A stretch of DNA of 64,000 bases from Raillietiella orientalis (GCA_036172245.1 JAYWIR010000004.1:4216001-4280000); one strand, 5' to 3'; shown: positions 2,309 to 41,296, numbered from the stretch's first letter. Numbers and translations are program-made. Notes: a model not told the origin generated them from the letters alone.

Positions 2309-3445
2309 ATGGTTCTTTCTATCTTGGTGTTTCCCTTGCTTTGTGGATTGTTCCATGAGGCGGGTGCAAACAAAGTACTTACCGAAGAGAACGAAAAGCT
2401 GAGTTACTCCTTCTCTAACAAAAGCTCGAAATTCGACGATCCGATCCTCAAATACAACAGCACAAGTAGAAAAAACGAGAATCTTAGTGATTACCAGCCG
2501 TGGTTTCTGCGGAAAGGATACAGCGCATCCAAGGATACAGAAGAACAGAGCTCCCTTTTTCGAGGCAACGGCTTTGCAGATTTCCTTTTATCCTTTCTCA
2601 AAGTGTTAACTGACGAGAAGTTGGTAATGAAGTTCGTAGAGACAGTGACTGCAAGGGCAAGAACGTCAGAGGACGAGACAGATGAAGTTCATCACGCGAA
2701 GATTCAAGGCAATCTACTGGAGCAGTCCAGTTTCTATTCCGACCCATCTTTGAATACCTTCTTCCAAAAACTTTCATTCCATTTCCTGAATTCTCTAGTT
2801 GATCTGTTAATCGAGAAGGAAAATGATGACGGTGGGAAGGGTCGCAGCAACGAAGCTAACCCAGGACTCCCGGATAAAATTTCAGATCCGGAGAGCAGAG
2901 ACGGGGTGCTGAAAGCTTTGAACGAGACTCTGAAAATGCTCGAACTGGTGCAGACTTTCCTTGAAGCAGGGGATCAAAGAAAGAATGATGATCCATCCAT
3001 CATAAATGGTCCTACGGGATCTCTGATAGATGAACTTTTTCCCGCACCGTCAGAGACCAACCCAGAAGTCACTGAGCCTCTGCTCAGGCGTTCAAAAAGG
3101 AAATTAAAACGTGGCATTATTCCTGTTGCCCAACCCATGTTAGGGAGGAGGGGCGTAAACTTTGGGATTTCTTCTCTCTTATCAGGAGTTGAAGAGACAT
3201 TGCTCAGACTTTTCTCATCGTTCGGATCTCTTTCGCAGTCTCTAGGACGGTCGGCTGGTGATTCCTCTTCCTTAGATGAGGGAGGGTTTTCCTTCTCAAG
3301 GAAAATCATGAAAATAATTGACGCTGTGCTGAGAAATGCTATTGTCAGCCTGATTAGCAGGATCATTGAAATGATCATCAGACAGCTCACTTCCTTGAGA
3401 GACACCAAACAAAGTAATAGTACCAGTAATTCACTAGATGGATAG
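2309..3445 (+). CDS. Secreted orphan precursor, 378 aa, single coding exon: signal peptide, acidic N-glycosylated pro-region, furin-type site RRSKRKLKR, C-terminal amphipathic helices
   Basis: Long ATG-to-TAG ORF; N-terminus MVLSILVFPLLCGLFHEAGA; sequons NKS, NST, NLS, NET; RRSKR at 3086-3100; AATAAA ~110 nt after the stop. Confidence 0.8.
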   Translation: MVLSILVFPLLCGLFHEAGANKVLTEENEKLSYSFSNKSSKFDDPILKYNSTSRKNENLSDYQPWFLRKGYSASKDTEEQSSLFRGNGFADFLLSFLKVLTDEKLVMKFVETVTARARTSEDETDEVHHAKIQGNLLEQSSFYSDPSLNTFFQKLSFHFLNSLVDLLIEKENDDGGKGRSNEANPGLPDKISDPESRDGVLKALNETLKMLELVQTFLEAGDQRKNDDPSIINGPTGSLIDELFPAPSETNPEVTEPLLRRSKRKLKRGIIPVAQPMLGRRGVNFGISSLLSGVEETLLRLFSSFGSLSQSLGRSAGDSSSLDEGGFSFSRKIMKIIDAVLRNAIVSLISRIIEMIIRQLTSLRDTKQSNSTSNSLDG

Positions 3446-3557
3446 CAGGATTTAACCAGTGATTTCAACGGAGATTTAAGAAACGGGAACTGTATTCTGA
3501 TAACATGTCAAATTAGCAGAGAATTACAGATTCCAATCAAGGACGTTGAACTGTAAG

Positions 3558-3563
3558 AATAAA
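3558..3563 (+). promoter_or_regulatory. Polyadenylation signal of the 2309-3445 gene
   Basis: AATAAA 113 nt downstream of the stop, followed by T/GT-rich sequence. Confidence 0.5.
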
Positions 3564-3784
3564 AATTTCCAAAATTGTTTATTCCTAAGTGCAAGTTGTG
3601 ATTTCGCGCCAAATGACCATGTGGGCAGGCTAAGAGGGCGGAGTTGATGGAAAAATAAAAACCTTAAAATGAAAAGTTAAAATCGAAAGTAAAAGTAATC
3701 CCATCTTGAAATGAGAAGCTACGCTAGAATAAAAGAAAAAATTCTTTGTAAAAAAATTTGCTTCTTTCGAATTCTCCAAGACAT

Positions 3785-4099
3785 AGTCTCACGATCCCTT
3801 GACTTTTGCTAACAACCCCAAGTTCACCCGGCTACCGTTCCCATAACTTCACGGGTACAAGTTTCAGCTTCATTCCTGAATCCAGATTGGGAAACCTAAT
3901 GACTATTCGAACAAGGAGCAGCTCTGTGTGTTACTAACCGAACTTTCACATTCAAGTGCGCACGTATAGGAGCAAAACGATTCTTCCGAGGGCTATTCAT
4001 TTTGAATCTGCAGATACGAGCTTGCTGTGGGAACTTTACGCAGCCGTTCCAAGAGTAATGAGCTTTTAAAAAGGCACGGAGATCCACATTTTGCATCAC
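3785..4099 (-). mobile_element. Decayed LINE reverse-transcriptase fragment
   Basis: Stop-interrupted LGFPIWIQE*S*NLY...NGS...KGS* resembles the L1/Tx1 segment GF..WI..LY...NG...RGVRQG. Confidence 0.3.
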
Positions 4100-5612
4100 A
4101 TCACATCAGTCGTCAGGCATAACGTTAGGAGATGTCCTCCGTTTTTTTCCTCTGATGGCAAAAGTGCGTTGCAGCTTTTTGTTTCGAAAAATAACTCGTG
4201 ATGAAACGAACAGCTCTGAGCTGTGCAAAAGCATCACGAAGATATTCATAGCAAAGGCAGCTGGCTGTCAACGTCAGCGGTCATCAACATCACTGGTCTT
4301 CTGTTTCACTATGCGAATCGATTCATTTTGAAGAAAATTACTGGGGGACTCGGTTTATATTTATCTTTCGTTTAAGTGAATTGGAAAAAAAAGAAATTTT
4401 CAGAGCGCGCATGCCATCAATTCTGTGCTAATGGTATGTTTGGAATTATTGAGGCAAACACGAAGGTTTATTTGTTTTCTATCTGCCTGTACCTCTGGCC
4501 ATCGACTTGGAGCAGTGGTCGTGTAGTGCGAGTTGGGAGAAGGCCTGTCCTGATTCGGGTGAGTTTGGAAAAATCGGAGCCTGGCTGCTTTCTTTCGTGA
4601 CCGTGACACCCGTTTAGAAATGCTGCACAGCTCCAGGATGCTCCTTGAGAAGGGAATCCGAAAAACCGCAGAATTCCAACTACCAAATCCTCCGACTTTC
4701 TCAGTTGCCTTCTTCAAATACTTCCGTATTCAGCAGAATGAAAGTCAATGTTCCTGGGAAGCCACATGGACAAAGTGATCTTCCAACATTGTGGGCAGCT
4801 CTGCCAAGGTGCAAAGTGTTAAGCAGCATGAGGTTGCGTATCGTTGCAATATGCTTTCTTTTTTAGGAACATCATTTTTCATACAACCTTGAAAATTACC
4901 GCCATTTTTCCCCTACCGGCGGCGTTATACTGTTGAAATCCTGGTACATGTCCATCTACAACTCGAAATTCTTTTGCGAAAACTGCTGCAGCATCGGTAT
5001 CTTTTTAAATAACGGATTTCTTAGGTTGCATGTGTTCGATACGGAATTCGATTTTCACTTTCATGTTGGTTGCTATCGCTTCTGACTAGTGCCCCGCTAA
5101 AAGATGTACGTAAATGTACGAAAGTCATACTTCATCAGGATCGTTGATGGTGTGTGATTATCACAAAACTCCTCCAATCTCGGAAAAGATGTACGTGGTT
5201 TCCTGATGGGACCACTGGTCTGATGCATTTTCATTTGCTGACATTCAACTGCTTCGTGCGTGCTCTCAAAAACGGTCGATTATTACATCAGTTGGATCTC
5301 ATCTCACATCCAACAGATTCGGATTCCATGGTTACAAAAAAAAAAATAAAAAATCGTTGCCTTTCATCTAGACAACAAAAAAACCACTTGCTCTGGGAAT
5401 GCTCTGTGAACTTTCCCAATCGGCGTTTCTTGTGGCTCAGCGTATTCTATTTATGCTCTGTAATCCTTCCCTCAATTCCGAATTCAATTATTAAAGTTCC
5501 GGGATCCGAGTGGTCATCCTGCAAGTAGAAAATCAGGGAGAGAGTGCTCCTACTTTAGCTTCTTCTTATTACGGCACCAATTTAGGGTAGGGTCCTTTTT
5601 AGTCAAATACAT

Positions 5613-6400
5613 TTATGTGTCCAGCTGTGCCACCTTCAAAACACCCGTAAAGATGTCCCCAAATGAACTCGTGGACTGAAATGCACGTTCACCGCAAGAA
5701 TGCGGTAATGAGATGACCACGTTTGCTCGTAACTGTGGCTTGTAAAACCGGAGGAGGATTCGAATAGTCAGTCGAAAAGGGCGCCGTGGTATCAGACATG
5801 CTGCAGAATGTTCCCAAACAAAACGGAGTCCCACATTGCTCAGCCGTACACTACGTGAGTGACGGGCAATGTCTCTTGACCATGCGAGTTCTGCTGTGAT
5901 CGAATCTAGAGTGGCGCTTGCCTGAAAGCAAAAACCCAGTCGGTCACAGAGGCTGGTGGCTGCATAGCCAAGTTCAGTGAACTGATGGTCATCAACTTTC
6001 AGCTTTTTGAATGCTAATATCGTGGCGGAAGCGTTCCCGGGTGTGAAAGCTCTTGAAGCCACACGCAGAAAAGTGCAAGTGGACCCAACGTGGGTGACGG
6101 CGGCAGGTGAAAGCACTCGCAGGGAATCGAATCATGTGCGCGGGATCTAGCGAAGCGAAAAACTTCAGAAAAGAGATCCCTGAGATCCCTGAGAAGAGAT
6201 CCCTAGGATCCCTGAGAAGTTCTCATACGAAGTTTCGACTTCCCAAGATCTGCCATCTGTCCAGAAAGTCTGCAACACACCACTGCACTGGAGATGGCAT
6301 CAAGCCATTCACGGAAGAAATGTATCGATTCGAGTTTCCTTTCGGCCTCGGGAACAAGCACCTATTGGGAGCTTACACGAGCACATTTGTTCGAGGGAAA
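5613..6400 (-). mobile_element. Decayed L1/Tx1-like ORF2 remnant (endonuclease end plus RT)
   Basis: ETRIDTFL (cf. SRIDY), TILAFKK, ISSLN in a shifted frame (cf. RPISLLN), SRDI, FYKPQLRANVVISLP...GERAFQ (cf. LY...VNG..S...RGVRQG), in the expected order. Confidence 0.5.
6171..6218. repeat. Short imperfect tandem repeat of GAGATCCCT-like units
   Basis: aagagatccctgagatccctgagaagagatccctaggatccctgagaa read directly. Confidence 0.7.
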
Positions 6401-6860
6401 TTTCCTTCCGAACCAGCAGAACCATTCATTCACCAAGCAATCCCGTAAACGATAAATGCTAAGATTTTTATCAGAAGGGAGGTTCTGGCATTCAATTCCG
6501 CATTGCCACACCGGAGCGTCTCGAAGAGTTTGAATATTTGCCATTCAGATGCAAAAACTCCAATGGATTGATTCCATATTATACATAATCCAAACAAGAG
6601 TTTGCTCATTTTGCCCCTCGCCCACTCTCTCTCTCTCTTCTTTTTTTGAAGATTAATTGCAGTTCGTTTTGTTCAAGAAAGCAACTGAAGGGACCAATTT
6701 TCCTCAAAGGAACGCAAAACAGATGTGTTTCAGGAAATCTTCAAATCGGATGCATTAAAAAACGCATAGCTCTTTTCTCAGAACTTTAATGTATTTGGGA
6801 AAATCCTTCTTCTAATACAGTGATCCATCTAACCGAACCACTGGAGAGTTTTGTCGCGCG

Positions 6861-7845
6861 TCTTCTCTTTGACAGAAATCTTCCTTGCAAAGGGCTGAAA
6901 TGTGGAGTCTCGTGGCTACGTATCTTGTTCATCGGCACTCGTCTTCCACATCACCTCCACCGTCTTTTAAGGCTCTCTGCCGGAACCAGGCCCTGTGTTT
7001 CTTGTCGACACAAGTCCTCTGAGGTTCGCCGGCGCCTGGCTGAATGCTGAAGAACTGAGGAAAGACTGGGTAGCGCCCCCGTCCGCAAACCGACGCGGGC
7101 GCCTGGCTCTCCCCTGCGCGAGAAAACGGGGGGCGTCTTCTTGCCGTTTCGTCTTCTTGGACGAAACGGCCTTCCGGAGCCGGAAGCGGCGCGCCGTTTG
7201 CGCCCTGCTTCGCGATGCCGGCGAAAGGAAGGCACGTCCCGCCCGGCTCACCCACCCACCGTCTTTGCTTGCTGGGGAGGCCGTCTTGGATTTCGCCTCG
7301 AGAGGTCGCACGATGCCACTCGGAGAAGGACCGCTTCTCCGTTCCCGTCTCCAAGAGATCGGTTCTCTTCGCGCGTTTCATCCCCAAGCGCAGTGCGACG
7401 TCGCTCGCGTCACGCCGAGCTGCTGGCAGCTCTTCCCGAGATCTCTCCCGAGATCGTGTGCTGGCTATCGCGAAGCAAACCGTGAGAGGCACAGCTTCCC
7501 CCTGGTTCCGGGACAACCGATTCCTCCGTCCGCTCCAAGAGTCGGCTCTCCACCTGTCTTTTTTGACCGCTCTCCACGTTCGTCCCGAAAGTGCGGTCTC
7601 CGCGAGCGTTATCTGAGCGCTGCGGGTGTCCGTCGCTGTTTCTTGCTCGGGGACTCTCCCGGAGATCCTGGCGGCTGTGGGTGCAAGTTGTGCTTGTGAC
7701 GCAATCGGCCATTCCCACGGCACCCTGAACGCCGATCGCACTGGTGACATCTGAGGGCGCGTTCGGAAACTCCGTGATCGAAGGGTGAAGTCTTCAAAAA
7801 CGGAAACTCGAAAACTGAAGTCGCCATTCCCGCTTGCTTTCAAAG
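6861..7845 (+). repeat. Copy 1 of a ~985-bp GC/CpG-rich direct repeat; contains a degenerate LINE ORF1 (RRM plus zinc-knuckle)-like frame at 6995-7699
   Basis: All ORF translations match those at 57515-58429; the only difference I saw is one extra G near the 5' end of copy 2; GQPIPP...SRKCGLRE...RRCFLLGD..GDPGGC resembles Tx1 ORF1 tandem CCHC knuckles with lost ligands. Confidence 0.9.
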
Positions 7846-10800
7846 TTTTTTAAACAAATGGAGCCTATTTTATGGAATGGCTGCAGGACAATTTTTGATT
7901 ACTCATTATTATGTGGTTATTATTGTTTAGACGACAGATGTTCTAAAGAAGGAAGCTGATTGTGTAAGAGAATTTCATGGTTAACATCTCTATACTGTTG
8001 ACCACCGATTTGTAGTTGTGGCCTCTGATCGATGAAATTTCTTCAAAATGAGAGCTTAAGAACTTATCCATTCCAACAAAGAAACATCTTTACGGGAGTG
8101 ACCATTCAACTCGTCAACCAGTCATTGCAAGCATCATCTTCCAAAAGGGTTGCAGGAGTTTCTACAGTCTTGTGGGAGATGCAACTTTAAGGAATCAACT
8201 TCCGAGCATCAGGACATGTTTCTGTGAGCTTGCTAGTGATTCTAAACAGCGTGAAGAGTAAGTTTTCTTGTACTGTCTGACCCCTGTCAACCAGGAAGCG
8301 ACGATGGTCATTAAAGAGTGAGGACACGAGAGAGTAAGATGGTGCTTGTCAAGAATCAGTTGTCCATTGTAGTCACATCTGTAGAAAAGTAAGTCATATC
8401 CACCACAGTCAGCTAAGTCACATCTGTATTCTCCTGCCACTAAAACAGCAAGTTCTTGGGTTTCGCAAGCAATCCTTTGTATCCTAGGAACAGCAGTCGT
8501 GACATATTTAAAGGTGCTACCTTTTTCGAGATGGTTTTGTTCCAGTGAGTTCATGCTAAGCAAATTACCAGAAACCAGAGAAAAGAATGAATCCCTCTCT
8601 TTTTTTTTTGGAATTCTTTACAAATCTTCGAGCTCCGATTACTGAAAAACAGCCAACAGATAAGGTTCGTTCTAGCATTTTCTTAGTTTATCCATTTGAG
8701 GTTCCAGCCGGTCTCTTCCTTAATCATACTGATGGCATAGCATCAACCGAAAAGTGGGCATGTTGTATGCCACTATAGAAAAGCTGGATCTCGTGAACAG
8801 ACTGCATGTTTTCGTATGCCATCATGCGTGTAATCAAATTGCAAATAAATGGAGTTTAGCCGTTGCCATGCATTTTCTAATTCGCTTGTGGACTGCGAGC
8901 TGCATCTTAAATCACAGATCTAAAGGATTCAATTTCCAGAAAATAAAGAACCAAGAGGAATACCGTAGCTGCAGAAAGCATGTCAGCATCTGCGTCTACT
9001 TGCCACCAACTCTTCCATGCAACTGTAGCTTCCACAAATCAAAGTATCATAGTATAAATAAATCGTATTATCATGAAATACACGGAAGTGCCTTTTTTTA
9101 AGAGAAATAATTCCTTTTCATAAAAGTGTTCTTTTTCATTTAGAAATCTTCCATCAGCAAGCAGATTGCTGTGGACCTGCTTATCACATACTTTCAAGTT
9201 TCATTCGAAAGTGCAATAAAATGCCTCCAGCCTTCAGAAAAACCTTTCAGACATCAGACATCTTGTAATCATTCCGTGCTCCAATATCTATTGAGGAATA
9301 GAAGCAATAAGAACAAGAGATTGAGAAAAACTCAGTTTTGACCACTTCCATCACAGAAGGGTGTGATGAGCAGTGAGTAAACATAGATGTAGGTCTGAGA
9401 TTTATTTGAGCATGAGAATGGAGAGGCTTTCACTAATTTAAACGAAGAAACGAAAGTTAGCAGGGGCTACAGAGGTCGGAGTAAACACAATACACAGAAT
9501 AGGGACACTTCTGTGCATCTTTCGATAACTTTGCCTTCTCATTACTTCCAGCTGATTATATGTGGCATTGGTGACTAATCGTTTATTTTGCCATTTCAAC
9601 GCACCATGGTTTCATGGTGCAGCTTGAAATCCCATCCTCAAATTTAAGAAGAGATTGAGCACTGTGGCATCTACTGTGGGATCATGAAAGAGATTGGATA
9701 ATAATAGCCAAATGACTGGTTGTCCTCTCACTTTGCAGGAATTTTTTTCCAACGCATCTGACAGTCGACTTAATGGTACTTTTTTGCTAACAGACGGAGA
9801 GTAGAGCTTGGATGGGCTCCGTTAAAGCATCACGGTTGTTCTTTCTTTGAAATGGAAGACTCCCATTAGCTGCTCAACCTACTTGTGCCTTTTGTGCTGA
9901 ACAAAAGAAGCAGTCACCAGAGATAACGACAAGCATAAGACGAGAAGAACTCAATTCCAGATGTTCCACAGTTCCGTTTCCTTCTGCAGCTTCTTGAGGG
10001 AAGTTTGCCGATACTCCAATCCAAGAACTCCTTTTCATAATTTATCCAACTCGATCCCAGCTCTGATTTTCACAAGCAGCGTGTGGCATTCAGACTTAAT
10101 TCTTCAGCCCTTTGCTCTCCGAGACATTGTCTAAATGCAAACTTGGATACCAAGATGACGCTTTCATAGAGGGAGGAAGGTTTTTAGAAGTTTTGAGCAC
10201 ACGAGTCTTTGGAATTACATGATTATAAACATACTCTTTGTATTTAAGTATTTAATTATCGGGAAAAATACATTAAAATATTTAACATACTAAAGAATCC
10301 AAATATTCATTATAAGAAATGTATTACGAAACTGAGACGTCGGAGAGGAACCACAGTGTTGTAAATTTTGATTTTAGACTCTTGGAGCGGCTGACGGTCA
10401 GTGCTGACTGCTGAAGAAGCAAGAAGCATTCGGTAACGATGCTTAAACAGAAAATCTCCCTCATGACGTCCCTCAACGTTCGATGAGATCAAAACTAATG
10501 GGAGCTTCTGTGATGAACATCAATCATGGACAGATAGCAGAATCCAGTAAGGTACCGGAAAAGGACCGGTTTCAGCACACAAGAATTCTGCGCACGTGTT
10601 TTTGTCTTTCAGGGTTGTAGTTGGCATTCAAGGTCATGAGTCAAACATTATTTCATGGCTGCTACATATGTTATGTATGATTAAAATCCATGATTTCTGT
10701 GCTCCACAGAAGGACAGTCAACACACAACCTGATAGTTAATAATATGGTGTTTAATAAAGTGTGTTTAAGTGGCAGGATGCAGTAACCATAACTGTGCAT

Positions 10801-16080: not shown

Positions 16081-16086
16081 TTTATT
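16081..16086 (-). promoter_or_regulatory. Candidate polyadenylation signal for exon 16228-17366
   Basis: AATAAA on the minus strand ~142 nt past the stop; a second one at 16018-16023. Confidence 0.45.
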
Positions 16087-16227: not shown

Positions 16228-17366
16228 TCAAGGATGTAAAACATTGTTTATGTAGTTTCCAGATAAGATGAGCTTGTCATTTATGTTCTCAAAAGTGGAA
16301 ACCAAGAAGTAAATTTGGAATACGACATAAAGCTTTAGGAGTCTCTTCAACCGCATAAGATGACGAGCAATCGGAGTATTAGTCAGTCCTTTCCTTGCAC
16401 TGGTGAGAAAAAGTAGCAAAGATCGGATGCTGTTTAGTACCGAGAGCACTCGTTGTATCTGACTCCATGCACGGGTCGCTGTTTGAAACTTTTCATACAC
16501 TCCACTCAGCACCCGATATACCATCTGAATCTGAGAGAAACTGCTTTGTAACGAGCGAAACTTTTGGAACAAGTTTCTTTGTGTAGAATCAAGCTGGTTG
16601 CTAGGAGCTCTCTCGTTTTTTCTCAACAGCGAGCGGAAGACTGCGTTTGCTTGTGACTTCCCTCTCATGGAATTAAGCACATGCATTCTGAGAGTATTAA
16701 TGAAAGCTGTTAATCTGTTCTTTAGCATTCGAGAAGTTTCTTTTGCATTCATGGGTGCAGGCATAAATAATCTGGCAAATGGTTTGGAAAAGGAAGGAAA
16801 ATTGGCTTCACCTCTTGGGGTGCTTAGCAAGCGTCGAATTTTTTGCTTTAATGATTTCCTCATTAGCAGAGGATTTAGCAGTAATCGCTTTAAAAGACTG
16901 AAAGTCATTTGTAATGGACGCATTCTGTTGCTCGAAGAACTACGCATTGCCAACGAAAATACCCTCTTGAGAATTTGGAAAACCATTCTTAGCGACGAGC
17001 TGTACACTTCTCTACTAACATTAAATCCAGATTGTATAAAAAAGACGAAAAGCTGAGACAAGAAGTTTCTGATTTCTTTGAAAATATAAACTCCATAAAA
17101 CAAAATGTTCAGCGGGTAACTAATAATGAGATACGTCAGGGAGTACAGACCATTCAACAAGAGACCAATGTATCTAGAAACGACATTGGTTATGTCCCTC
17201 CATAAGGGATTCTCTTCTACATTTGAACCTAAACCAAAAAGAATCACCAGTAGTCGAGAGAGACCGCTATTGGGACCGAACAGAAAAGGTGAAAGTACTT
17301 TCAAAGGAGTTTTAATGATTCGTTTGGGATCTACAAATCTCCGTCTTCTTATAGGCAGCTGCGGCT
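16228..17366 (-). CDS. Terminal coding exon A (378 codons after the junction) of an orphan basic amphipathic protein; starts (x)PQLPIRRRR/FVDP
   Basis: Open frame over 1.1 kb with no usable upstream ATG; strong acceptor ttgcattgtgttctttAG ending at 17367, phase 1; length 1139 = 2+3n to TGA; paralogous to exon B. Confidence 0.75.
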
Positions 17367-18234
17367 CTAAAGAACACAATGCAAATACATAGTAATTAGA
17401 AACTACATTTCTTGAATTTTTGAACTGATTTAAGAATAAAATACTTCAACAGTGATATTGCGGCTTGAAAGGCTTTTCAGTGAAAACTACCAAACAAATA
17501 TTCAAAAGCAGCGCCCCAAACAGATGACTCAAGGAGCCATCATTTTCAGAAGCAATGAAAAGCTCCTTGGAAACAGCAATATCTAGCACGTTTTACTTTG
17601 GGTATTCACAAAAAGTAGTGCACAAATCGGGAAGTTCGTGCATTCTCATCAAAATAGACCCACAGAGTTTTGTTTTGAAGAGCAGCTTCAAACGTTCCAA
17701 ATGTCAAGATGAAGGTTTGGTTTCCAGCTTTTTATTAAGATAATGAAAAGCTGTATGTGTTTGTACTTTGGAATTCGTGAGCACTCGGAGCTCTTCGGAA
17801 CGAATGAGACCGCTCACAGTGGCAGTTTTGTCACAGACTCATCATGGCGCCTAAAACATGGTATTGTGGATTTTCAACTTTCTGTGTCTTATCGGTGGCC
17901 ACCGATAATTTGATACAGTATTACAGATTTCAGGAAGGATGATTTTTCGTTTTCGTAATGAGACTGATCTCGCTTCAGTCTAGGATTTTTAAAGAAGGAA
18001 ATGAAAGAATCATCATTAGGCGCTTCAGAATAACTCTTCGAATAGTGGAGGTTTTCAAAACAAACAGTTTCATGCTTAGAAAATGCATTTTTATTTAGGT
18101 GGGAGTTTATTTTCATTGGTTTGGTTGCCACCTGAAATGAAGAGGGCTCTGGAAACATCTCCCAATAGCTCATGGAAAATTCTGATCATCAGACGTAATC
18201 TTCTTAAGGGAAAATCTCTAGGCATCTGGATGAA

Positions 18235-18240
18235 TTTATT
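18235..18240 (-). promoter_or_regulatory. Candidate polyadenylation signal for exon 18554-20334
   Basis: AATAAA on the minus strand ~315 nt past the stop. Confidence 0.4.
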
Positions 18241-18553
18241 TTTTCTGAGATTAAGTGATCACTATCTGTGTGCACAGATGTTGATCCCACATTTATAAAT
18301 GATCACCGGCTTTCTTATTTCAAGATCCGTAAAACTGTTTCCGAACCAGATCGACAGCTCGACTTAAGCTGAATTATGTCTGTCCACTCACTGAGATGAG
18401 GGAGGAGATTTTTCATAGTGCGTATTTGTTCCAGAAGCCACCGAAACTTTGAACTCATTGAATGAACATTTACATCTTCAGTTCTTATCCATCCTGCTTA
18501 TTAGAAAGCCTAAGAAACTCTCAAACAAAAATCTCCGCTTCAGATAGAATCCT

Positions 18554-20334
18554 CTACGTTCGAGTAGCGTTCGTTAATCGTTTCAAGATTCTCATCAGTG
18601 TGCCATAAACACTGTTCAATATAGCCTGGCTCAAATCTTTGGCTTGCGAATGCTTAACAAGTGTTTTCACAATAGAAGCCAGTGTCTGCATTAGGATCTT
18701 TGTGAAGAAAATAATGGGTTCAAATAGAGTCACAAAAGTTCTGTCCAATGAACTTTCTTTCTTTACTATGGAGACTTTACTTGGAGGAATTATTTCCCTC
18801 AGCATCTCTAGGAAGTAACGCGATAAAAGAAGTTTCTCGTTGTCAGGTTGCGTGAAAGGTAGCGATCTAAACAGAGTCTCATTATCTCTGATTGACTCCA
18901 ATGCAGCTATCGGCCGCATCCGTACATCTTTGTGAGTTCCGATTCTGCAATTTGATGAAAGCTCTCTCCTTGAGCCATTCATATCTGATGCTTTCGGATT
19001 GCCAAGATGGTTCAGAAATCTGTTGAAAGAACACGATGGGATTTCATCTTTGAAGGAATCATCTAAGCGGATAGTGGAACTGTTAACAAGTAAGGGTCGT
19101 TTTTCTTCTTCAGCAGTTGCCGATCCGTTGATGTTTTGAGAGTTTTGAAACACTTTATTTGTCGCAGCTGTTCTTTTCCTTCTCATTTGTTCCCTTTGCA
19201 CTAGGGGAAGTTTCCGTACCTCCTTAGTTATGGAGTCTGTTTCGCTCTTCCTTCTCTTGTTACCGAGCGGTTCTTTGGAATAATCCTCTTTGAATAATGT
19301 GCTGGATTTGTTAAGGTACTCCTCAAGCTGTTCCAGAACTCCATTTAGTATGACTGCTCCTGCTGAAGTGACCAACAGGTTATTTACAGCGGATGGCAAG
19401 GCTACTTCCGCCTTGTTTCCCTGCTGCCTGTCCAGAGCACCCATCTTTCGATAAGGTGGTGGCGAGGCCTGCCTGTTCCGCTTCGCCAAGAGGAGGAGGG
19501 GGGTGACACCTGTTGAGCTAATGGGAAACCCGCTTTCGTTCTTCGGTGCGTCTTTGCCCATGGGTCTTAGGGGGACACTGGGAGAAGATGGGTGCTTTTT
19601 AAGGCCAAGATGAGTAGAGGCCAGGAATGCAATCGCCAAAGGGGCAGACATTAACAAAATGGTTCGAAGATTCGCTTTACTTGGAGATGAGCTTCTACCA
19701 CCTGATTTGTGATCTGGGGATCCAAACAGTCTCAATAATGCCGCTTTGTTCCTCAGGGAGTGAGTTCTACTTGAAAATCTGTTCGACTTGGCTCTGTTTC
19801 TCAAACGTCTGAAGATGCTCGACTCTATGAGGTGAGGGATGGAAAATATCCTGTGAACGAGAGAAAAAAGCATTCGCGCTTGTGGGATGTCGACCCTGGA
19901 GTGCAACATTCCGGCGATCCATCTTGACAGTTTGATTTGGAGCCTGACAAAGGATCGAATCTCACGAAAAGCGAAGAGGGTGAGATTTCCCGAATCTCTT
20001 ATGTGATTCAGTAGAAAATTCAGGATGATACTCAGAATGGTGTTGGAGACTTGAACTGCAGTGTTTACGAATGTGAAGAGAGTGTTCACTCCGCTGGCAA
20101 TAAGCTCGGCAGCTCCAAACAAAAACACATACAGGTATCTGCCGATTATTCCTATCAGGGACAAGAGTGGGCTCTGAGGTATGAGTCCAGATCTCAGGTT
20201 GGAAAAATACAGAAGTGCAGTCAGATTTGGGGAGTTAGTGCTTCTTCTTAATATAAAGGCAATCACATCAAGGATCTTGAGCTTACTGAATCTTTTCTTT
20301 CTCTTTTTTCCTTTTCTAGCCTCTTGAACATCGT
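18554..20334 (-). CDS. Terminal coding exon B (592 codons after the junction) of an orphan basic amphipathic protein; starts (x)DVQEARKGKKRKKR/FSKL
   Basis: The frame extends upstream of the tracked GTG to acceptor tgcctgtttgtttttaAG ending at 20335, phase 1, with an in-frame stop overlapping it; length 1781 = 2+3n; shares motifs with exon A. Confidence 0.75.
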
Positions 20335-20788
20335 CTTAAAAACAAACAGGCACGGTTCAGTAAATTCTGGAAACAGACCTTACGGTGCGTTTAAAATCAT
20401 TTGTTCAGATAGCAAGAACCCTTCTGTTATTAAGACAATATCCAGCCTTTGTTAAAGTTCAACGTATATCGTTGTGATAGTCATTATGGCGCTGCAACGT
20501 CTTCAAAACGTACTGAGCATCTGTGTTCCTGAAAGAGGCCTCCTAACATCCGCAAGCAAACCATGTTTTTAAGGTCTAATAAGGGATTAAAGGTTTGGCA
20601 TGACAGTGGAGACAAGGAACCGGACTGGATAAAGGCTTTCTTAACTACAGATGTTGTGACGTAGCCTTCCAACACATTTCTTACATAATATCTGTGCGGC
20701 CCGTACCAATCAAGTCTGTGTTTTCAAGATGGGTGACACCTGATAATTACCCGATAACTCAGACTGCAAGAGTCGCTCCTCAACTCAC

Positions 20789-24702: not shown

Positions 24703-25199
24703 GTTTCGCTAGCTTGTCGAGAAATCATGTAGATTTAGTAGGTTTTCCTGTGTTCATTTTTAGCTTTTTCGACAGAAGCAAACTCTAAAAACGGCAAGTT
24801 ATGACAGAACTAAATATTTCTTAATAGCGGATTCCTGCAAATAGAATTCCACATTAATGAGGAATTGTACAGGCTGGATGAAGAGCGGAAAAGTCCAAAA
24901 TCCAAAACGCCATCCTAAACACGTCATAACTTCCATGGCTGCAGGTTTAAAGTGCAGCCTCCTTTCACTAGAGGGAAGAGTGTGGTCGTACAGTGGGGAA
25001 TATTGAAAGCTTTCATTGCACCATTCTTTGCTTCTTTCAACTGCTCCGTTGTGACCTTCTGCGAGAAGGATCTGTTCCAGAGGTGTATTTGGAGGCTTAT
25101 TGGAAGGTTTTGAAGGATTCCTCACTTGAAAGGTGTTCAGTAGCTTCCGTTTGTTATTAATGAAATCAGCAGCCAAACTTTTTCGATTACACGAGTAAT

Positions 25200-25720
25200 T
25201 CGGACGTGAAATCATGTGCTGCCTTGAAACTGAACTACAAAAACCGATTCCCGATGGAAGATTCGTTTTCTCATCTCTTCCTCTTCGCGTCAGCAGTGTC
25301 TCGTTTCTTTCAAATGAGTACTTTGACAAACTCGAACACGCGTGGGAGGAAACCACCATCATGAACGCACTGTGCGAGCGTTCCGAGATCGCCTGCTTAT
25401 CAGAAAACACACAAGAAATCATCCATCTTTTCTCTTTCCGAGTACGTCGGCGGTACACCACAGTCTCATTGACACGTAGCATCGCACTGGCTCGTTAGAG
25501 GGGAGCTGAAAGAAACGGACCTACTTCGAAATTTGACAGAGTAAGGGGTAGTGGGAAGGTTTTGCGCACAAAGGAACGCACAGCAAAATATTCTTGTTTC
25601 TCTTGTATCACTAGAAAAAGAAGACGTCCTGAGAAACCACTTGAAGTACTTGGAACGCTGCCAAATATGGTCAGAATATCCTGAATCGCGTACGCTTTTC
25701 CTTCGGACCTGAAACAACAT
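25200..25720 (+). mobile_element. Decayed LINE ORF2 linker between endonuclease and RT
   Basis: SVSFLSNEYFDKLEHAWEE and later RTKERTAKYSCF...RKRR resemble the N.SLL...W and GEK.TKYFF segments of L1/Tx1 ORF2. Confidence 0.4.
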
Positions 25721-29562: not shown

Positions 29563-29605
29563 CAGAATTGCTAAACTCTTTGAACATTCGAGTTCGAATG
29601 ATTGA
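29563..29605. repeat. 43-bp direct repeat, partner at 31986-32028
   Basis: 39/43 identical by manual alignment; all four differences are transitions. Confidence 0.85.
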
Positions 29606-31625: not shown

Positions 31626-31887
31626 CGATGGGGTTTTCCGTTGCTTTCGCATTTTCTTGAGAATTGATAGGTGATTCGAATTCTATTGGAAGCTCTGCCA
31701 AAGTGGTGTTTATATTGCAAGAAGCTTCCATACGAATGTTCCCATAGCCATCCAGAGAAAGGCAGTTCGTGATGGAACTTAGATCGGTTTCTGTGCTTCC
31801 CGCAGCTCCGTGGATGCACGCAAGAAGGGCTGCTACCAGAAATGGAATGGCAAACTTGTCATTGAGTGAAAAGAATGCAAATCTCAT
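31626..31887 (-). CDS. First coding exon with signal peptide and acidic two-Cys pro-segment (87 codons + 1 nt)
   Basis: ATG at 31887; FAIPFLVAALLACIHGAAG hydrophobic core with small-residue cleavage site; consensus donor G|GTAAGT at 31625, phase 1. Confidence 0.6.
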
Positions 31888-33469: not shown

Positions 33470-33860
33470 TATTTCTGTGTTGTCTTAATTCGTATTTCCC
33501 AAGTTCCACGAGGGTCCCTTGAGGGACGCAACCCCGCGCCGTAGACTCGGTGGACATCCGCTGGAGTGCCCGGGACGAATGGGGGCACATCCCGGACCTC
33601 GGAGGTTCCGGAAGGGGTCAAGGCGAGGCCAACCATTCCACGGACCCTCGCAAGAGCGACTTGCATACGGCAGGGAAGAAGACGGGTTTCCCCTCTCTCC
33701 TCTCGTGGCACCACCCCTCCCTTCTTGGAGAAGATGAGCGCCTGCTTTCCGCCTGTGGGCAGCACCTGTGTGGCCAGGCGAGGAGGCACGTCCCGATGCA
33801 AAGGTGCATATGGAGGCATCTTTAGACCGGGACGAGAAAGGGAGCTCCTGCGCCAGTTTC
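33470..33860 (-). mobile_element. Decayed L1/Tx1 ORF2 3' fragment
   Basis: HRDV..RLATQVLPTG...GET...TWEIR follows the RLAH..LPT...C..C..ET..H...IW..R layout; GC-rich island. Confidence 0.5.
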
Positions 33861-35432
33861 GTGTTTTCGGAAAAAAAATAATCTGAAAACTAGGAAGGAA
33901 TTGTAGATTGTAGATCAAGTTGTATATTGTAAGAAAGTAGTTGACTATTTTGATAACAGGAACAATACCTTCGAAATTCTCAGATGCAATCAAATCGGAT
34001 AACGTGAAGAAAGCTGTTAGTTACAAAAACCCTTATTTCGTGCGAATGCCATGAAAGTCTTCTTGGGGCATACTGATTTATACGAATTCTTGCTTCGATT
34101 TCTGACACCGACTCGAATGAAAGTTTCACAAAAGTAAACAACCAGCATTCCACACGAAAACTGTGGGCGCGCATTTAAATTTGTACTGTAAGTACGAAAC
34201 AACTTTTACACCGAGAAAGTCGAGAGACAAACAGATCGTGCGTTCAGTCATGAATTGCATTTAGCTAACTTGGAAACATCATGATGTGAAAGACAGAGCT
34301 CCATCAACATCCTTCAGTTTTCATTCATCAGTACTTTCGACGAGTTGAGAGTAAGTAGCCAATGCAAGAAACCGCAAACATGACGTGATTTTTAAATAAG
34401 AAGCATCCGTCATAGATGGCATTCATCAGCGAAAGGTCGGAAATCTTTGCTGCCTCGTAATGGTCCATGAGCTATGTGGATAATGAGATCTTTCGCCCCA
34501 AAGTCTCGGGAGAAGGATGTGTCTATCTCGAGTTTTCAAAAGCAGAGCATTGGAACTGCTTTGCGATTTTTTTTTTCCAAATGCATGCGGCACAGCAGGT
34601 TGGAAGAAACGAACCACAACCATAGATCTCAACTTCAAGGTTCTGAAGCAAGAAACTATTTTACAGAATGCGCAAACTGCATGAGTTGTTGCAGTGCCAC
34701 TGTAATTGTACGAGCTGATTGACTGAACCAATGAGCTGTTGAACAGAGAATCAAGAACTCCCTCAAATGTAATGACTCTCGCCAGCTCCAGATTTTGCTT
34801 CAGGTCGGAAGAGTGATTTCAGCAGATGAACGCACTCGTAATTTGAGCATCTGCTTTTGCATGCAAGCACAAAAGACTTCCGGAATTCGAGAAATTGCAT
34901 CCTTAGATGCATCCCCTTTGTGAATTTTCGAAAGCTTTCCTGAGGTTCATGGCTTCAAAATTGGGGATAAGGACATTCAGCCTTCTCATGAAATATTACA
35001 GCTTGCATTCGGAGAAATGTCGAGAAAAAAATAAAGCAGAGAAAGGAAAGGGCAGGCGTGTTTTGAGAATGCGGCTTTCTATTCTTCGATGCTCTGAGCA
35101 AACTTTCGTTTTCATTTGGGCACTCGGGGCTGGAAATTTCATGGGCATATTTGGTTGTCATTCCCGAATCTTATGAGCAAAGAACGAAAGCTAATGTTCA
35201 TGCTCGGTGCTCATCCACGCTCCCACATCCTCAATTCCTTCCATTACTATTATTAATGTCGTCAGGAAGGAAATTTGAATTTCCTCGCAAATACATCCTT
35301 CCAAGTTGTTAGCTGATTATTAACAGTAACGATCATAAAGGCCTTAATTTACATGCGATCAAAAGACCTGCGAGAGCTAAAAGAGCAATCGAGGAGAGTC
35401 TTTGGATTCTTGATCCATAACGTGTGAGAAAA

Positions 35433-35449
35433 ACACACACACACACACA
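35433..35449. repeat. (AC)n microsatellite
   Basis: acacacacacacacaca. Confidence 0.8.
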
Positions 35450-36430: not shown

Positions 36431-38279
36431 ACCGATTCCTATTCGAGGTGAGCGTATCGGAAATACTGGTAATGAGTCATTCTCAAGGCGCTTTGACATG
36501 TTAGGAGGAAGTGCACTTCACATATCTCATTGCACACGAGCAACTTCCAGAAGAACCAAGAAATGTCTGAAAACAACGACCAGAACCTTACACAGATGGA
36601 TTACGTTCGAATTTTTTGTGCTAGATGATGGACAATGACTCTGGTTCTTGCTTGATAAACTTTGAAAGCAGCATAAAAAACCACATTTTTTTTTTCACAT
36701 TTTTGTTTTGTGAGGGAACTGATAAAAACAAATAACAAAACTGATCAAATAGCTCATAATGAAATCAGGATACTGAAAAAAACTGATATGCAAATTACTG
36801 TTTTCAAAGCATATTCTGCTCAAAATCTCACATCGATCTCGTGCAGGATAACTTGGACGCTACCGTATTGGTGATCTTTGGAGTCTTTTTGCTTCAACGG
36901 AAGCAATTTATAGAATTGTATCCATCAGCTGCTATTAGCGAGCCAATGCAAAAAAAAAATTTGAACATTTGTGTGAAGTGTCAACTACTGAACCAATAAA
37001 AATGGATCGAGCCAAACTAAAAAATGAGCTGTTGATGAGCTGCTGGAAAACAGAAACGCTACCGCATGCTCAAAACTGCTCGGGCACAAAATGGCGTGCT
37101 TTTGAACACTCTGCAATACGGAAATGCGGAGCTGTTTTCGGACTAGAAGAGGCATGATGACTCTGAGAGTATGATTCGGTACTTTTCGTCGGTCATCCTG
37201 AGCAGTCACAGAAAAAGCATGCTTTAGGGACCAGCGTTTCACCGGGAAATTTTTCTGTGCCGGAAGAAACGCCGCTAAACCTCTTTTTGGTATTCTTCAT
37301 ATTTGGGATAAAACGTGTTTTGGTACTGCGGATTCTTATTTTGAATATGGTTATCTTGGTAGCCCATGATAATACAAATTTCAGATGCCTGCAATTCCGG
37401 AGAGCGAGAATGATGTTTCAGATCTCTGCTCTTCATTACGTAGCAATGAGCTTTTTCCCCACTGGTTGATTCAGAGGTTTTTCGGTATGAAAATGTAATT
37501 CATCGCTTCAGAAAGAAAGAATAAGAAAAGATCAAGAAAAAAAAATCAGACCAAAGAGACGCTGATCATCACTGATGGAAGTTCTAATATCACATGCAGG
37601 AAAGTAGTTGGAAGCAAACTCCTTTCGTAAAAACATTGGCTTCCCATTCTCTTACGAAAGAGAAAGCTCTGGATTGTATTGCTTCAAAAGAAGCGTGCAT
37701 CAAAAGCATGAGTAATGTGATTGAGATTAAAAGCTGCAGGAAGTCCGGAAAACGGAGAGCTGAAATTCACTGGCGTTTTCACTTCTGCATATTTAATGTA
37801 CAAAAGTGAGAACTTTGATCTCTCTTCAAATGGCCTTTTTTCGATCGTTTAAAAAGATTTCTTATTTTCTGTCTTTCCTGTCTGATTGAGAACTTCATCG
37901 CCGATGCACATTCAGTTGGACTATTCCCTTAAATCAGCACCCTACTCCGATACTTCGGTTTCTTCATTCGGTGCCGAACTCATGGTTTTCCGAAAAATTG
38001 GTACTTCAACATTTTCGGTGAGACACAATCCTATCAATCAAAGTGGTTGCTGACCTTCCCTGACTGCCACCTTCCGTCTTTATTCTGTGTCCTTGCTGCT
38101 GATTCTGCCTTGGCACTGGAAATACTCTGGGAAACTTCTCTTCGTTGTTAGAAGCTTCGGGGAACTAAGCTGACCACACGTGAACGAAACAAACTCGTCG
38201 ATTTTATCATCGTTAGATCTCTCATGCGAGCCCCAGAAGGGAACCTCTTCGTTGTTCTATCCGTAGGGACTGCCCGGTT

Positions 38280-38880
38280 TGTGGGGCCGCTCCTCATTCT
38301 CTTCTCCGAAGGGAAACCGAAAAGTATCCGCTCCTGAATTTCTTCTCCGGAGCGAACCCGCAAGGGAACCGCTCCTGTTTACTCCTCTGAAGAGACTCCC
38401 GAAGGGACGCTTCCAAGTTTCTTTCGATGGGCGCTTTTCTAAGGGAGGGACGCGGCTCTTACACTCTGGAAAGACAATCCCCCGATGGAGGTATCAACCG
38501 TGGTACGAGATGGAGGGTCTCCCCAAAGGAGGGGGAGAGCTCCATTTTCACAAGTGGAAGGAATCAAGGAGCTGGAAGGGAACTGGCTCCTTGATTCCTG
38601 GAAGGACCCTGAGGGGTCAACTTCCAATCCCAGCCCAGTCAACGAGAGCATCCGGTTTCCGGCTTCCACCAAAGCATGGCCTACCATGGTCATCCTGCAG
38701 GCGGGACTCGCAAACCCACGACGCGGATCCTTCCCCGGGTAAGATTTGAACCGCAAAGCGCTCGGTACGGTGCACGGAGACCGTAGCCAAGCGGCCTCCA
38801 GCGCGGACACATCGGTCAGGACCACACCTTGGTTCCTGGAAGCGAGGTGCTCAGGACATTCAGGTATGGAAACTGACACT
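38280..38880 (+). mobile_element. Decayed LINE ORF1-like fragment
   Basis: GC-rich island; GRFQVSF (RRM-like), then two eroded knuckles LQRGHIGQDH and CSGHSGME. Confidence 0.4.
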
Positions 38881-38972
38881 TCATTGTGTCGGTTTCCATA
38901 CCTGAGTTCGAGTACTTCAATTGTACTAGAATAAAAAAAAATGCAACACTTCTCATTTTCAAACCGTTGTCT

Positions 38973-38978
38973 TTTATT
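38973..38978 (-). promoter_or_regulatory. Candidate polyadenylation signal for the 39368-41296 gene
   Basis: AATAAA on the minus strand ~390 nt past the stop. Confidence 0.35.
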
Positions 38979-39367
38979 TAAAATGCATGCAAATTCTGGA
39001 TATCGAATATTCCTGTTGGTGGCTGCAGGTGGAGGTGCAGCGTCTCAGAACTTCAACTCGTTTCCCGACGGTCACGTGGACTAGCGGCAGTTTTCGCCGA
39101 CAAGCGCATTCATCGATTCGATAGTTTCAATATGGAGAAAATGTTCATTCCGAGGCATCGTTTGTATGTACATAAGTCTTGACAGATAAGCCGATATCGA
39201 TGATATTTCACAATTGAATAAGAACGAAGCATAAGAGTGTCCAAAGAAAAGAAGACGAAAAACAATAACAGAACACGAAGATGAAGGCGATGTTCGTGAC
39301 CATACTCAAGTGAAAAGCACTGAACGAATGGATGGAGGGGTTCCATAGCTCACTTCCATGGCTCTAC

Positions 39368-41296
39368 TTAATTGATAAGTTCTTCAACCACAGTAGAGTT
39401 TGTTTGACTATTGACATCTTCAGTGGAATGGCTGGTGGCGTTTCTTAGCAGGTCATAGTCCAGGAAATCATCAAAATTTCCGTTGGAATCGTTCATAAAC
39501 AGTCCTTGGAAGTTGTCGAGTTCGAAGTCACCGGAGGAGAGGTTCCTGTTCAAGAAGAGATCCTTTATTCTCTCTAAATTTCCGTGCTGAAGCGCAGACT
39601 TCAGTGACTGAGTGATCATGTTTTCCAAGGATTCCGGTTCCCTGAACCGATGACCAAAAATGCCGTTCCCACTGATCAGTGCCAGAGCAATGATGGCAAC
39701 CGAGCTCAGAATGACAACACGGATTGGAGCAGCCAGCAGCTTAGACAGCATGCGTGATACTCTTTTGCCTCCGTCCGTGGCTCTACTCGTCGATGGCTTT
39801 AAGAAGGAGTTCGAGTTTCCATCCGCGTTTAAGTTTCTCAAAAGCAGATCGGGCAAAAGAGACTTGCGACCGCTCATGATCATGTCCAAACCAAGCAGAC
39901 TTGTGATGCCGAGGCGTTCCAGAGGGCTGCTTACCAAATGGTCCAGGAGTTGGCTGATTTTTCCTAATGGAGAGCTTTGTAATCCTTCCTGCAATTTGCG
40001 AAACGGAAGCTGCGCTCTCGAGTTGCTTCTGCCGAGGAATCTGGAGAACAGCGCTCGGGCAACAAAAGTAAGCAGCTTAAGCAAAACCTTTCCCTTCCTG
40101 TTAGGAGCGGAAAAATGCTTCCTGAGCAAAGAAAACAGTAGTTTCAGACGGTGCAAAGCGACCAGAGGTATGATCGTCAGCAGTATGGGGAGTTTGAAGA
40201 TGAAATGAAGAACCACAAGTACGAATACAATCGGTAATCTTTTGAGTAGATGAAGCAGAAAGAAGACCACCGGACCCAGAAGTTTCAAAGAAACATATCC
40301 ATGGGGCCTTTGTTTTGGCATTCGCAAAAGTAACCGACGTATGAACTTTGGACCGCGCACTTGCGCATTCGTTTCTCTTGACTGGAGAAGCTTTCTCAGG
40401 ATTGCCTTCACACCGCTGAGAGGCTGTGCTGCTTGTGACTGTACGTGGCGCTTCTGCAGTCTCATCCCAAGCTGCTCTCCCGTCTCCAACCTTGTGTTGT
40501 CTTCTGTTCGGTCCCAGCTTTCGGATCGAACAAGCCTTCTGCTTCTTATCCCCTGACTGTGGTTCCCATCGCTCGGCATAACGTATTGGTCGAAATAGGC
40601 TTTCCGGGATGAGTCTGCAATTAAGGATCCATTCCTCAAAACGATCAAGTGGTCTTGATTCGAATTCCTCTGTGTATGCTCAGATATCACAAAATTCACA
40701 GGACTGGATTCTGGAGGATACCTGCTTGCATTGCTAGAACTCAGTCTGTAGCTCTTGGCCCTCTTGGTCTTCATGCTGAAGTAACGAGTGGTTTCCTCTT
40801 TCAAATGGTTAAGGATCCCTGAAATGCTGTTCTCGATCTGTGTTCTAATTTGGTTCAATATTGAGAGCCAGGAGTTATTAGTGGCTTTTTTTTGACTGGC
40901 TGTGCTCTCATCTTCATCGACAAGCGATCCAATAGGTGGATACGTGGGACGACTGTATGGCACAGTGAATTCATGCGTTGTGTTCATGCTGGATTCTTTT
41001 GGATCATCTGATTCATTTTTCACCGTTCGTTTCAGGAGACCGTCTGCTTGGTGCTCATCGAGGAAACTGAATGGAGCTGCTTCTTTGGAAATCAGAGAAC
41101 CCTTTATGGTGGAATTTGAAAAATCTACACCTTGAATTCTTTCTTTGGTAGTGAAGCCAGCTCTGGATTCGATGACAGCTTCGAGATCCCCAGAATGGTT
41201 TTCTGCAAACGGATGCTCTTGATCGTCAGAGCAGAAAGCAACCGGAAGCGACAGGAACACAAAAACAGAAACTGAAGTCACTTCTATCCACATCAT
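39368..41296 (-). CDS. Secreted or membrane orphan precursor, 642 aa, single coding exon: signal peptide, N-glycosylated pro-region, RSRR and RLQKR sites, basic domain with long hydrophobic segment, TM-like helix, acidic tail
   Basis: Longest ORF in the window; first in-frame ATG at 41296 gives MMWIEVTSVSVFVFLSLPVAFC; many N-x-S/T sequons; hydrophobic blocks at ~40120-40290 and ~39670-39745. Confidence 0.85.
   Translation of the reverse strand: MMWIEVTSVSVFVFLSLPVAFCSDDQEHPFAENHSGDLEAVIESRAGFTTKERIQGVDFSNSTIKGSLISKEAAPFSFLDEHQADGLLKRTVKNESDDPKESSMNTTHEFTVPYSRPTYPPIGSLVDEDESTASQKKATNNSWLSILNQIRTQIENSISGILNHLKEETTRYFSMKTKRAKSYRLSSSNASRYPPESSPVNFVISEHTQRNSNQDHLIVLRNGSLIADSSRKAYFDQYVMPSDGNHSQGIRSRRLVRSESWDRTEDNTRLETGEQLGMRLQKRHVQSQAAQPLSGVKAILRKLLQSRETNAQVRGPKFIRRLLLRMPKQRPHGYVSLKLLGPVVFFLLHLLKRLPIVFVLVVLHFIFKLPILLTIIPLVALHRLKLLFSLLRKHFSAPNRKGKVLLKLLTFVARALFSRFLGRSNSRAQLPFRKLQEGLQSSPLGKISQLLDHLVSSPLERLGITSLLGLDMIMSGRKSLLPDLLLRNLNADGNSNSFLKPSTSRATDGGKRVSRMLSKLLAAPIRVVILSSVAIIALALISGNGIFGHRFREPESLENMITQSLKSALQHGNLERIKDLFLNRNLSSGDFELDNFQGLFMNDSNGNFDDFLDYDLLRNATSHSTEDVNSQTNSTVVEELIN

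Follow-up and report, generated by a model that had tools for sequence, protein, structure and literature searches.

Here we describe a locus in a window of Raillietiella orientalis DNA (GCA_036172245.1 JAYWIR010000004.1:4216001-4280000; the window is the whole stretch of 64,000 nucleotides that was analysed, and all positions are counted from its first letter). Four long open reading frames (ORFs) in this window encode proteins in which cysteine is nearly absent, with a total of 5 Cys in 2018 residues, and we judge them to be genuine, apparently taxon-restricted genes that probably specify secretory or membrane glycoproteins. The frames, whose proteins are labelled P0001 (ORF1), P0002 (ORF2), P0003 (ORF3) and P0004 (ORF4), are the following:

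2282-3445, plus strand: ORF1, 387 codons, with its Met at 2309
39368-41392, minus strand: ORF2, 674 codons, with its Met at 41296
18554-20335, minus strand: ORF3, open over 593 codons
16228-17445, minus strand: ORF4, open over 405 codons

An earlier sequence-only reading of this DNA had placed four long coding exons here (2309-3445, 16228-17366, 18554-20334 and 39368-41296), and all four frames are indeed open well beyond chance. First-order Markov simulation of the window (60 runs) gave a longest ORF of 182 codons on average and 266 at most, and in 300 simulations per ORF, each with the composition of that ORF, the maxima were 196-235 codons, against the 387-674 codons observed. Because these lengths exceed every simulated maximum, the four frames are not the product of chance. 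A frame-specific codon signal served as the coding test. Pooled over the four ORFs, Cys codons (TGY) are found 5 times in frame versus 83 and 76 times in the other two frames, and Trp codons (TGG) 7 times in frame versus 35 and 34 times. The depletion of Cys is present in each ORF (observed over expected from position-specific base composition: 1/6.9, 1/11.2, 2/9.5 and 1/9.7), the pooled Poisson P being 4.5e-11, and the Cys share falls from 3.5% in the translated background ORFs of the window to 0.25% in these four. As had been claimed, no frame has more than two Cys (1, 1, 2 and 1 in P0001, P0002, P0003 and P0004). The sole Cys of ORF1 and that of ORF2 lie inside the signal peptide, and the sole Cys of ORF4 lies upstream of the splice acceptor of an otherwise Cys-free exon, so the mature chains of these three products are Cys-free. 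This unusual composition is nearly identical across the four ORFs (L 13-16%, S 11-13%, C 0.2-0.3%). The four frames are genuine translated coding sequence, and the near-total exclusion of Cys and Trp over about 2000 codons is a clear and testable selective signature. The contigs of a low-coverage DNA run (X1, share 0.08), which covers the window in part, are identical to it and show no differences within the ORFs.

The gene models that we propose comprise two single-exon genes and two large 3' exons, with a candidate 5' exon upstream of the latter:

2309-3445, plus strand: gene 1 (ORF1), a single coding exon of 378 amino acids plus stop
39368-41296, minus strand: gene 3 (ORF2), a single coding exon of 642 amino acids plus stop
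18554-20334, minus strand: large 3' coding exon of ORF3, starting after a phase-1 acceptor
20335-20336, minus strand: splice acceptor AG of ORF3, tgtttgtttttaAG before the junction and AC after it, phase 1, read from the sequence
16228-17366, minus strand: large 3' coding exon of ORF4, starting after a phase-1 acceptor
17367-17368, minus strand: splice acceptor AG of ORF4, tgtgttctttAG before the junction and AG after it, phase 1, read from the sequence
31626-31887, minus strand: candidate 5' coding exon, newly proposed here, with an ATG at 31887, a signal peptide and a phase-1 donor

ORF1 and ORF2 begin with a Met followed by a hydrophobic, signal-like segment, as judged by hydropathy and a scan for signal-like segments, and both start codons have an A at -3 (the context in ORF1 is cagaaaATGg). 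ORF3 and ORF4 have no Met and signal-like start of their own, and the inner ends that the sequence-only reading had given them, 20334 and 17366, are the first bases after canonical acceptors, with a polybasic run 6-12 codons further on in both exons. On the minus strand between 17367 and 39367 there are 6 candidates that combine an ATG with a phase-1 donor, scored with an approximate consensus matrix, and only 31887-31626 has both a signal-like segment and a consensus donor. This exon would encode a signal peptide (…FLVAALLACIHGAAG/STE, the slash marking its end; Kyte-Doolittle (KD) hydropathy of the signal-like segment 3.08) and then 57 acidic amino acids (net charge -7) with one sequon (N-X-S/T), and it ends ATCG/GTAAGT at 31626. 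Since the phase of its donor fits the acceptors of both ORF3 and ORF4, we propose that it is joined to ORF3 as one gene, gene 2, spliced in phase 1 across an 11.3-kb intron. ORF4 would then either serve gene 2 as an alternative 3' exon or belong, as 3' exon, to a fourth gene, whose 5' exon was not found. Splicing of ORF3 to ORF4 was rejected, since by eye the only GT just before the ORF3 stop is a weak, phase-2 site, versus the phase-1 acceptor of ORF4.

Beyond each of the four stops there is an AATAAA: at 3558-3563 for ORF1 (113 nucleotides downstream), 16081-16086 for ORF4 (142 nucleotides), 18235-18240 for ORF3 (about 314 nucleotides) and 38973-38978 for ORF2 (390 nucleotides). Taken alone, these positions are weak evidence. 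Two smaller frames on the same strand were also noted. One is an ATG-initiated frame of 22 codons at 18391-18455 (minus strand), about 1 kb upstream of ORF4, which by eye ends CA/GTGAGT in phase 1; this mini-exon could feed ORF4 without a signal peptide, its donor falls under the scoring threshold, and it is kept as a possibility. The other, 231 codons at 24799-25494 (minus strand), lies inside the proposed intron, is Cys-rich and has no Pfam match; its length is inside the chance range (simulated maximum 266), and it is probably non-coding.

The four products share a layout in which an acidic part is followed, at a polybasic site, by a basic part rich in Leu, Ile and Phe. The features concerned are these:

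2309-2368, plus strand: predicted signal peptide of gene 1 (aa 1-20, ...HEAGA/NK), KD 1.78 over 19 amino acids, place of cleavage by eye
3086-3112, plus strand: RRSKRKLKR, polybasic junction of gene 1 (aa 260-268)
40535-40546, minus strand: RSRR, polybasic site of ORF2 (aa 251-254)
P0002 aa 279-283, minus strand: RLQKR, second polybasic site of ORF2
20291-20308, minus strand: KKRKKR, polybasic site of ORF3 (P0003 aa 10-15)
17338-17349, minus strand: RRRR, polybasic site of ORF4 (P0004 aa 33-36), 6 codons past the acceptor

In ORF1 the signal peptide precedes an acidic N-half (net -15, 4 sequons), RRSKRKLKR and an amphipathic C-part of 114 residues with a net charge of +6. In ORF2 the N-part after the signal peptide has a net charge of -6 and 8 sequons versus 3.1 expected; past RSRR and RLQKR follow a basic part of 306 residues (net +32, 39% L/I/F/V/M, no sequons) and an acidic tail with 4 sequons. 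The ORF3 exon goes from KKRKKR to a basic hydrophobic part (aa 16-250, net +24), a part of 343 residues with 7 sequons and a C-terminal amphipathic helix, and the ORF4 exon from RRRR to 369 very basic residues (net +41). Much of what the sequence-only reading had described is therefore present: signal-like N-termini in the two complete genes, as judged from hydropathy and, by eye, small residues at -3/-1; acidic N-halves with glycosylation sites in the same two genes; a polybasic site in each of the four frames; and, past these sites, sequence with 35-39% L/I/F/V/M, 13-16% K/R and net charges of +6 to +41. Three of the products thus have, or could acquire through the candidate 5' exon, a signal peptide, which supports their entry into the secretory pathway.

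The same earlier reading called the basic parts amphipathic. The hydrophobic moment is significant in ORF4, where it is strongest (z 6.0), and in the ORF1 C-part (z 3.9), with z 2.5 in the ORF3 N-part; the basic part of ORF2 contains strongly hydrophobic segments. Self-similarity at i+4 and i+7, the pattern expected of amphipathic helices, is above what shuffling allows in both ORF1 and ORF2; in ORF4 it is marginally over the 95% limit of 3.24 at i+4 (z 3.29) and under the limit at i+7 (z 3.14).

The polybasic sites include the motif of furin and other proprotein convertases, R-X-[KR]-R, with at least one match per product (RSKR, RSRR, RKKR, RRKR, RRRR and RLKR). Pooled over the proteins, these 6 matches compare with 1.8 in shuffles (P 0.0115), a modest enrichment, and 3.8% of shuffles of the ORF1 protein have a cluster with 5 of 6 residues K or R. 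The case for the sites rests on their position rather than on a motif count per protein: all four lie at the switch from acidic to basic sequence, in ORF3 and ORF4 just inside the exon that opens the basic part. Signal-like segments apart, hydropathy finds no hydrophobic window ahead of the sites in ORF1, ORF2 or the candidate 5' exon, the last taken as joined. Convertases of the furin type act in the lumen of the secretory pathway. Since this is also where the site of the signal-bearing products would lie, a furin-type cut at the junction is probable.

In ORF2, and less clearly in ORF3, the basic part also carries segments that look fit to span a membrane. The two segments of ORF2, with helices taken from a low-confidence AlphaFold model, are:

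40124-40282, minus strand: hydrophobic block of ORF2 (aa 339-391), KD up to 2.56, model helices 337-395, likely membrane-embedded
39653-39751, minus strand: second hydrophobic segment of ORF2 (aa 516-548), KD 2.42, model helix 524-551, likely a transmembrane helix

Within the basic part of ORF2, stretches of 46 and 33 residues have KD means of 2.56 and 2.42. Residues 339-420 (about 40037-40282, minus strand) consist of repeating units of about 15 residues, each a hydrophobic stretch that ends in His or in one or two basic residues, and at lag 15 self-similarity (z 3.83) is above the 95% limit set by shuffles (3.19). None of the 12 sequons of ORF2 falls within residues 255-584 (P 1.7e-4 by length), a placement that fits both ends being outside and the basic loop inside. 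ORF2 thus looks like an integral membrane glycoprotein rather than a protein from which a soluble domain is released. ORF3 has weaker candidate segments (54-82, KD 1.84; 220-246, KD 1.71) with a basic stretch between them, a layout parallel to that of ORF2, and is probably membrane-integral as well. In ORF4, and in ORF1 beyond its signal peptide, no window reaches KD 1.6, and both look surface-seeking rather than membrane-spanning.

Signs of kinship among the four are faint and are concentrated in two pairs. The post-site parts of ORF3 and ORF4 align collinearly from RKKRF and RRRRF over about 175 residues, with z 4.65 (1 of 1000 global shuffles reaching the score) and z 2.96 under block shuffling (10 of 1000); for the ORF1 C-part against the ORF2 middle the values are z 3.96 (0 of 1000) and z 3.26 (9 of 1000). 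ORF3 and ORF4 also have in common the phase of the acceptor and the polybasic run plus Phe 6-12 codons past it. Over whole proteins, Smith-Waterman scores against shuffles of 25-residue blocks lie at z 2.2-3.2 in four pairs, where 2-7 of 200 shuffles do as well, and at or under the shuffle mean for ORF1-ORF3 and ORF1-ORF4; with the four proteins as tblastn queries, the window itself returned nothing under E 0.8. The two marginal pairs, the rare composition, the acceptor phase and position common to ORF3 and ORF4, and the adjacency of the genes together lead us to think that the four probably are old, fast-diverged tandem paralogues.

The sequence-only reading recognised no known domain, and our searches agree with it. 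In Pfam the best matches of the four proteins (Med30, E 0.1; DUF1477, E 0.55) are far below the cut-off. No relative was found in the sequences of the PDB (all four proteins), in a word-indexed search of 5.8 billion proteins (P0001, P0002 and P0003), among metagenome contigs (P0002 and P0004) or among viral contigs (P0002 and P0003); phmmer with P0002 gave 0 matches in 1.84 billion representatives, and the ESM Atlas no usable match to P0002 or P0003. Confident matches to a known family, sought in this way by sequence, were thus not found. The language-model recognition values of P0002 and P0003, 1138 and 1063, fall where those of shuffled sequences typically do. As the proteins of the window are themselves absent from the collections searched, coverage of the lineage may be poor, and the orphan status is provisional. 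A leucine-rich-repeat (LRR) reading of ORF4, which would call for tandem LxxLxLxxN units of 20-30 residues, was considered and rejected: a designed LRR protein in the PDB matched with a whole-sequence E of 7e-4, but every single stretch had an i-E of at least 1.4, there is no Pfam LRR match, and self-similarity at lag 24 (z 2.94) is under the 95% shuffle limit of 3.24.

The DNA around the genes had been described as relics of LINE elements, a description that we could not substantiate: none of the other 465 stop-free ORFs of the window (117 of at least 90 amino acids and 348 of 55-89) has a Pfam match, and there is one repeated element only, although very decayed relics would escape such a search. 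Rfam finds no family in the 64 kb and there are no tRNA genes, and the practical value of the present analysis is one of annotation, with three or four real genes in a stretch that otherwise looks empty. The repeated element, of 996 bp, occurs twice in direct orientation (6857-7851 and 57442-58437, 50.6 kb apart, 99.7% identity). It is the only internal repeat of this kind in essentially unique DNA, is relatively GC-rich, and has several open frames on either strand, the longest ORF having 308 codons, with no Pfam match; a recent duplication, or a mobile element that is young and non-autonomous, may account for it. A GC-rich block at 44495-45930 (52%) has overlapping frames of 126-271 codons on both strands, also with no Pfam match, and similar openness in several frames is seen at 33472-34020 and 38267-39044. 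A 41-bp tandem repeat (2.2 copies, 38287-38377) lies just downstream of the 3' region of ORF2. The CpG observed/expected ratio of the window is 0.86 (0.65-0.96 per 8 kb) at a GC content of 43%, with no vertebrate-style CpG depletion, as befits a non-vertebrate genome.

The explanation that we prefer, and hold with somewhat less than even confidence, is a fast-diverged cluster of secretory glycoproteins whose basic helical part is kept in or on the membrane and which probably undergo luminal cleavage at the polybasic site. Three or four neighbouring genes, the first and third single-exon and the second spliced, would encode products that enter the secretory pathway, so that the acidic, N-glycosylated part would face the lumen or the outside. 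Past the polybasic junction, a basic, Leu/Ile/Phe-rich helical part free of Cys and Trp would lie in or on the membrane: in ORF2, and probably ORF3, as an integral part in which two hydrophobic segments flank a basic loop, and in ORF1 and ORF4 as an amphipathic, surface-seeking one. A furin-type convertase cutting at the junction would then part the glycosylated moiety from the membrane-associated one.

Several points weigh against this explanation: (i) taken one protein at a time, R-X-[KR]-R is within chance (P 0.08-0.38) in proteins in which K/R is high throughout, and the convertase motif that had been proposed is borne out for the pooled set but not for any single protein. (ii) BLASTP detects no similarity among the four proteins (best E 0.021, ORF3 versus ORF4), the other four of the six post-site pairs are at chance (z -0.03 to 1.34), and the two positive pairs reach only a P of about 0.01; the earlier notion of a family is weak. 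(iii) Single-sequence AlphaFold models are of low confidence (pLDDT 43 for P0002 and 38 for P0001); the helical character claimed for the basic parts draws on these models and on the i+4 and i+7 periodicity. (iv) Topology comes from a crude Kyte-Doolittle window and not from a trained predictor; ORF4 lacks any window at the level used; and in ORF3 a strongly basic stretch would be luminal of the first hydrophobic segment, contrary to the positive-inside rule if cleavage does not remove it. (v) The 11.3-kb intron and the pairing of exons are predictions made with an approximate donor matrix. (vi) Taxon restriction could reflect a gap in the data, with few proteins of the lineage in the collections.

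The sequence-only reading had gone further and seen soluble secreted pro-proteins, in which an acidic pro-piece neutralises a cationic amphipathic domain until a convertase frees that domain against foreign or target membranes, in the role of a defence, venom-like, adhesive or gamete-coat effector. We regard this reading as a whole as unlikely. It accounts for the signal peptides, the acidic-then-basic layout with polybasic sites at the switch and the modest motif enrichment, and it suits the ORF1 C-part and ORF4, with their strong amphipathicity and no clear transmembrane window, as well as Cys-free mature chains, which are what linear helical peptides would have. A precedent for such an arrangement comes from Hydra, whose antimicrobial peptide genes are taxon-restricted, tandem and charge-bipartite (PMC10945409). 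Nevertheless, the parts that would be released are 110-580 residues long, far above the size of known linear peptide effectors; the 46 and 33 transmembrane-grade residues in the middle of ORF2 would not be soluble; the ORF3 exon runs on past its basic part with a sequon-rich part of about 340 residues; and the acidic pro-piece of the gene with ORF3 would be only 57 residues with a net charge of -7, versus at least +24 in the basic part. A convertase-activated effector is thus allowed for ORF1 and ORF4. It is doubtful for ORF2 and probably so for ORF3, both of which look membrane-anchored.

A different view would make the four genes independent orphans or young, possibly de novo, neighbours, alike through local base composition and with polybasic sites that arise by chance at 12-16% K+R. 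The lack of BLASTP similarity, the four of six region pairs at chance, the per-protein motif P values of 0.08-0.38, the absence of homologues from the collections searched, the shuffle-like language-model values (1138 and 1063) and the unconfident AlphaFold models are all what this view would predict. We nonetheless find it unlikely, for Cys is depleted in each ORF and in a frame-specific manner, which is not an effect of base composition: in its other frames this DNA has 76-83 Cys codons. ORF3 and ORF4, moreover, have the same acceptor phase, a polybasic run plus Phe and a collinear alignment, and ORFs of 387-674 codons would be unexpected for very young genes.

The boldest form of the effector idea, which we consider improbable, would be an undescribed, lineage-specific family of Cys-free, convertase-activated, membrane-active proteins of about 400-700 amino acids, in which the glycosylated acidic part inhibits the basic helical part until cleavage and ORF3 and ORF4 possibly serve the one 5' signal exon as alternative 3' 'warhead' exons. 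If true, host-defence, gamete-interaction or adhesive effectors would gain a new class, whose members far exceed classical cationic peptides in size. The locus would then be a compact example of secreted membrane-interacting effectors arising and diverging beyond recognition within a lineage, and the design of an acidic pro-piece plus a cationic helix, known from small peptides, would extend to proteins several hundred residues long.

Finally, an origin as envelope-type fusion glycoprotein genes, domesticated or left as relics from a virus or retroelement, is very improbable: ORF2 does follow the feature order of class I viral fusion glycoproteins, with a signal peptide, then 8 sequons, RSRR and hydrophobic helices, and a transmembrane-like helix late in the chain, and a Phe comes right after RKKR and RRRR in ORF3 and ORF4, but class I glycoproteins are normally disulfide-rich and the mature chains here are Cys-free, the four proteins have no Pfam match and no relative in viral contigs, the 465 other ORFs give no gag, pol, RT or integrase signal, there are no flanking repeats around the genes, and the residues just past the sites are charged and not fusion-peptide-like.

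Compared with other known systems, the secretory and membrane glycoproteins that we propose show partial likenesses only. With the substrates of furin and related convertases all four products have the R-X-K/R-R motif in common, a likeness of motif match only. Exchangeable apolipoproteins are secreted, Cys-poor and built of long amphipathic helices, and the proteins described here are similarly Cys-poor and signal-bearing, with long amphipathic helices suggested by the i+4 and i+7 periodicity; they differ in having no Pfam or PDB match, in being far more basic (up to +41), in their acidic glycosylated parts and in the transmembrane-grade segments of ORF2. Antimicrobial precursors of the Hydra type are short and release peptides of tens of residues, whereas the products here have 378 to about 680 amino acids and post-site parts of 110-580, carry transmembrane-grade segments in ORF2 and ORF3, and show a marginal paralogy (P about 0.01 in two of six pairs). 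In Hydra, the genes of arminin, periculin and others encode secreted precursors with a signal peptide and a clear split between negative and positive charge, and occur as clustered paralogues without homologues outside the lineage; most of the antimicrobial peptides of Hydra have a complex cysteine pattern (PMC10945409). Our proteins are unlike these in being almost Cys-free and in having no sequence similarity, and alike in genomic style and in joining a signal peptide and an anionic N-part to a cationic C-part (-15/+6 in ORF1, -6/+32 in ORF2, and -7 in the candidate 5' exon with +24 in the ORF3 N-part). By this analogy, the charge-bipartite antimicrobial peptide genes of Hydra are the nearest documented design.

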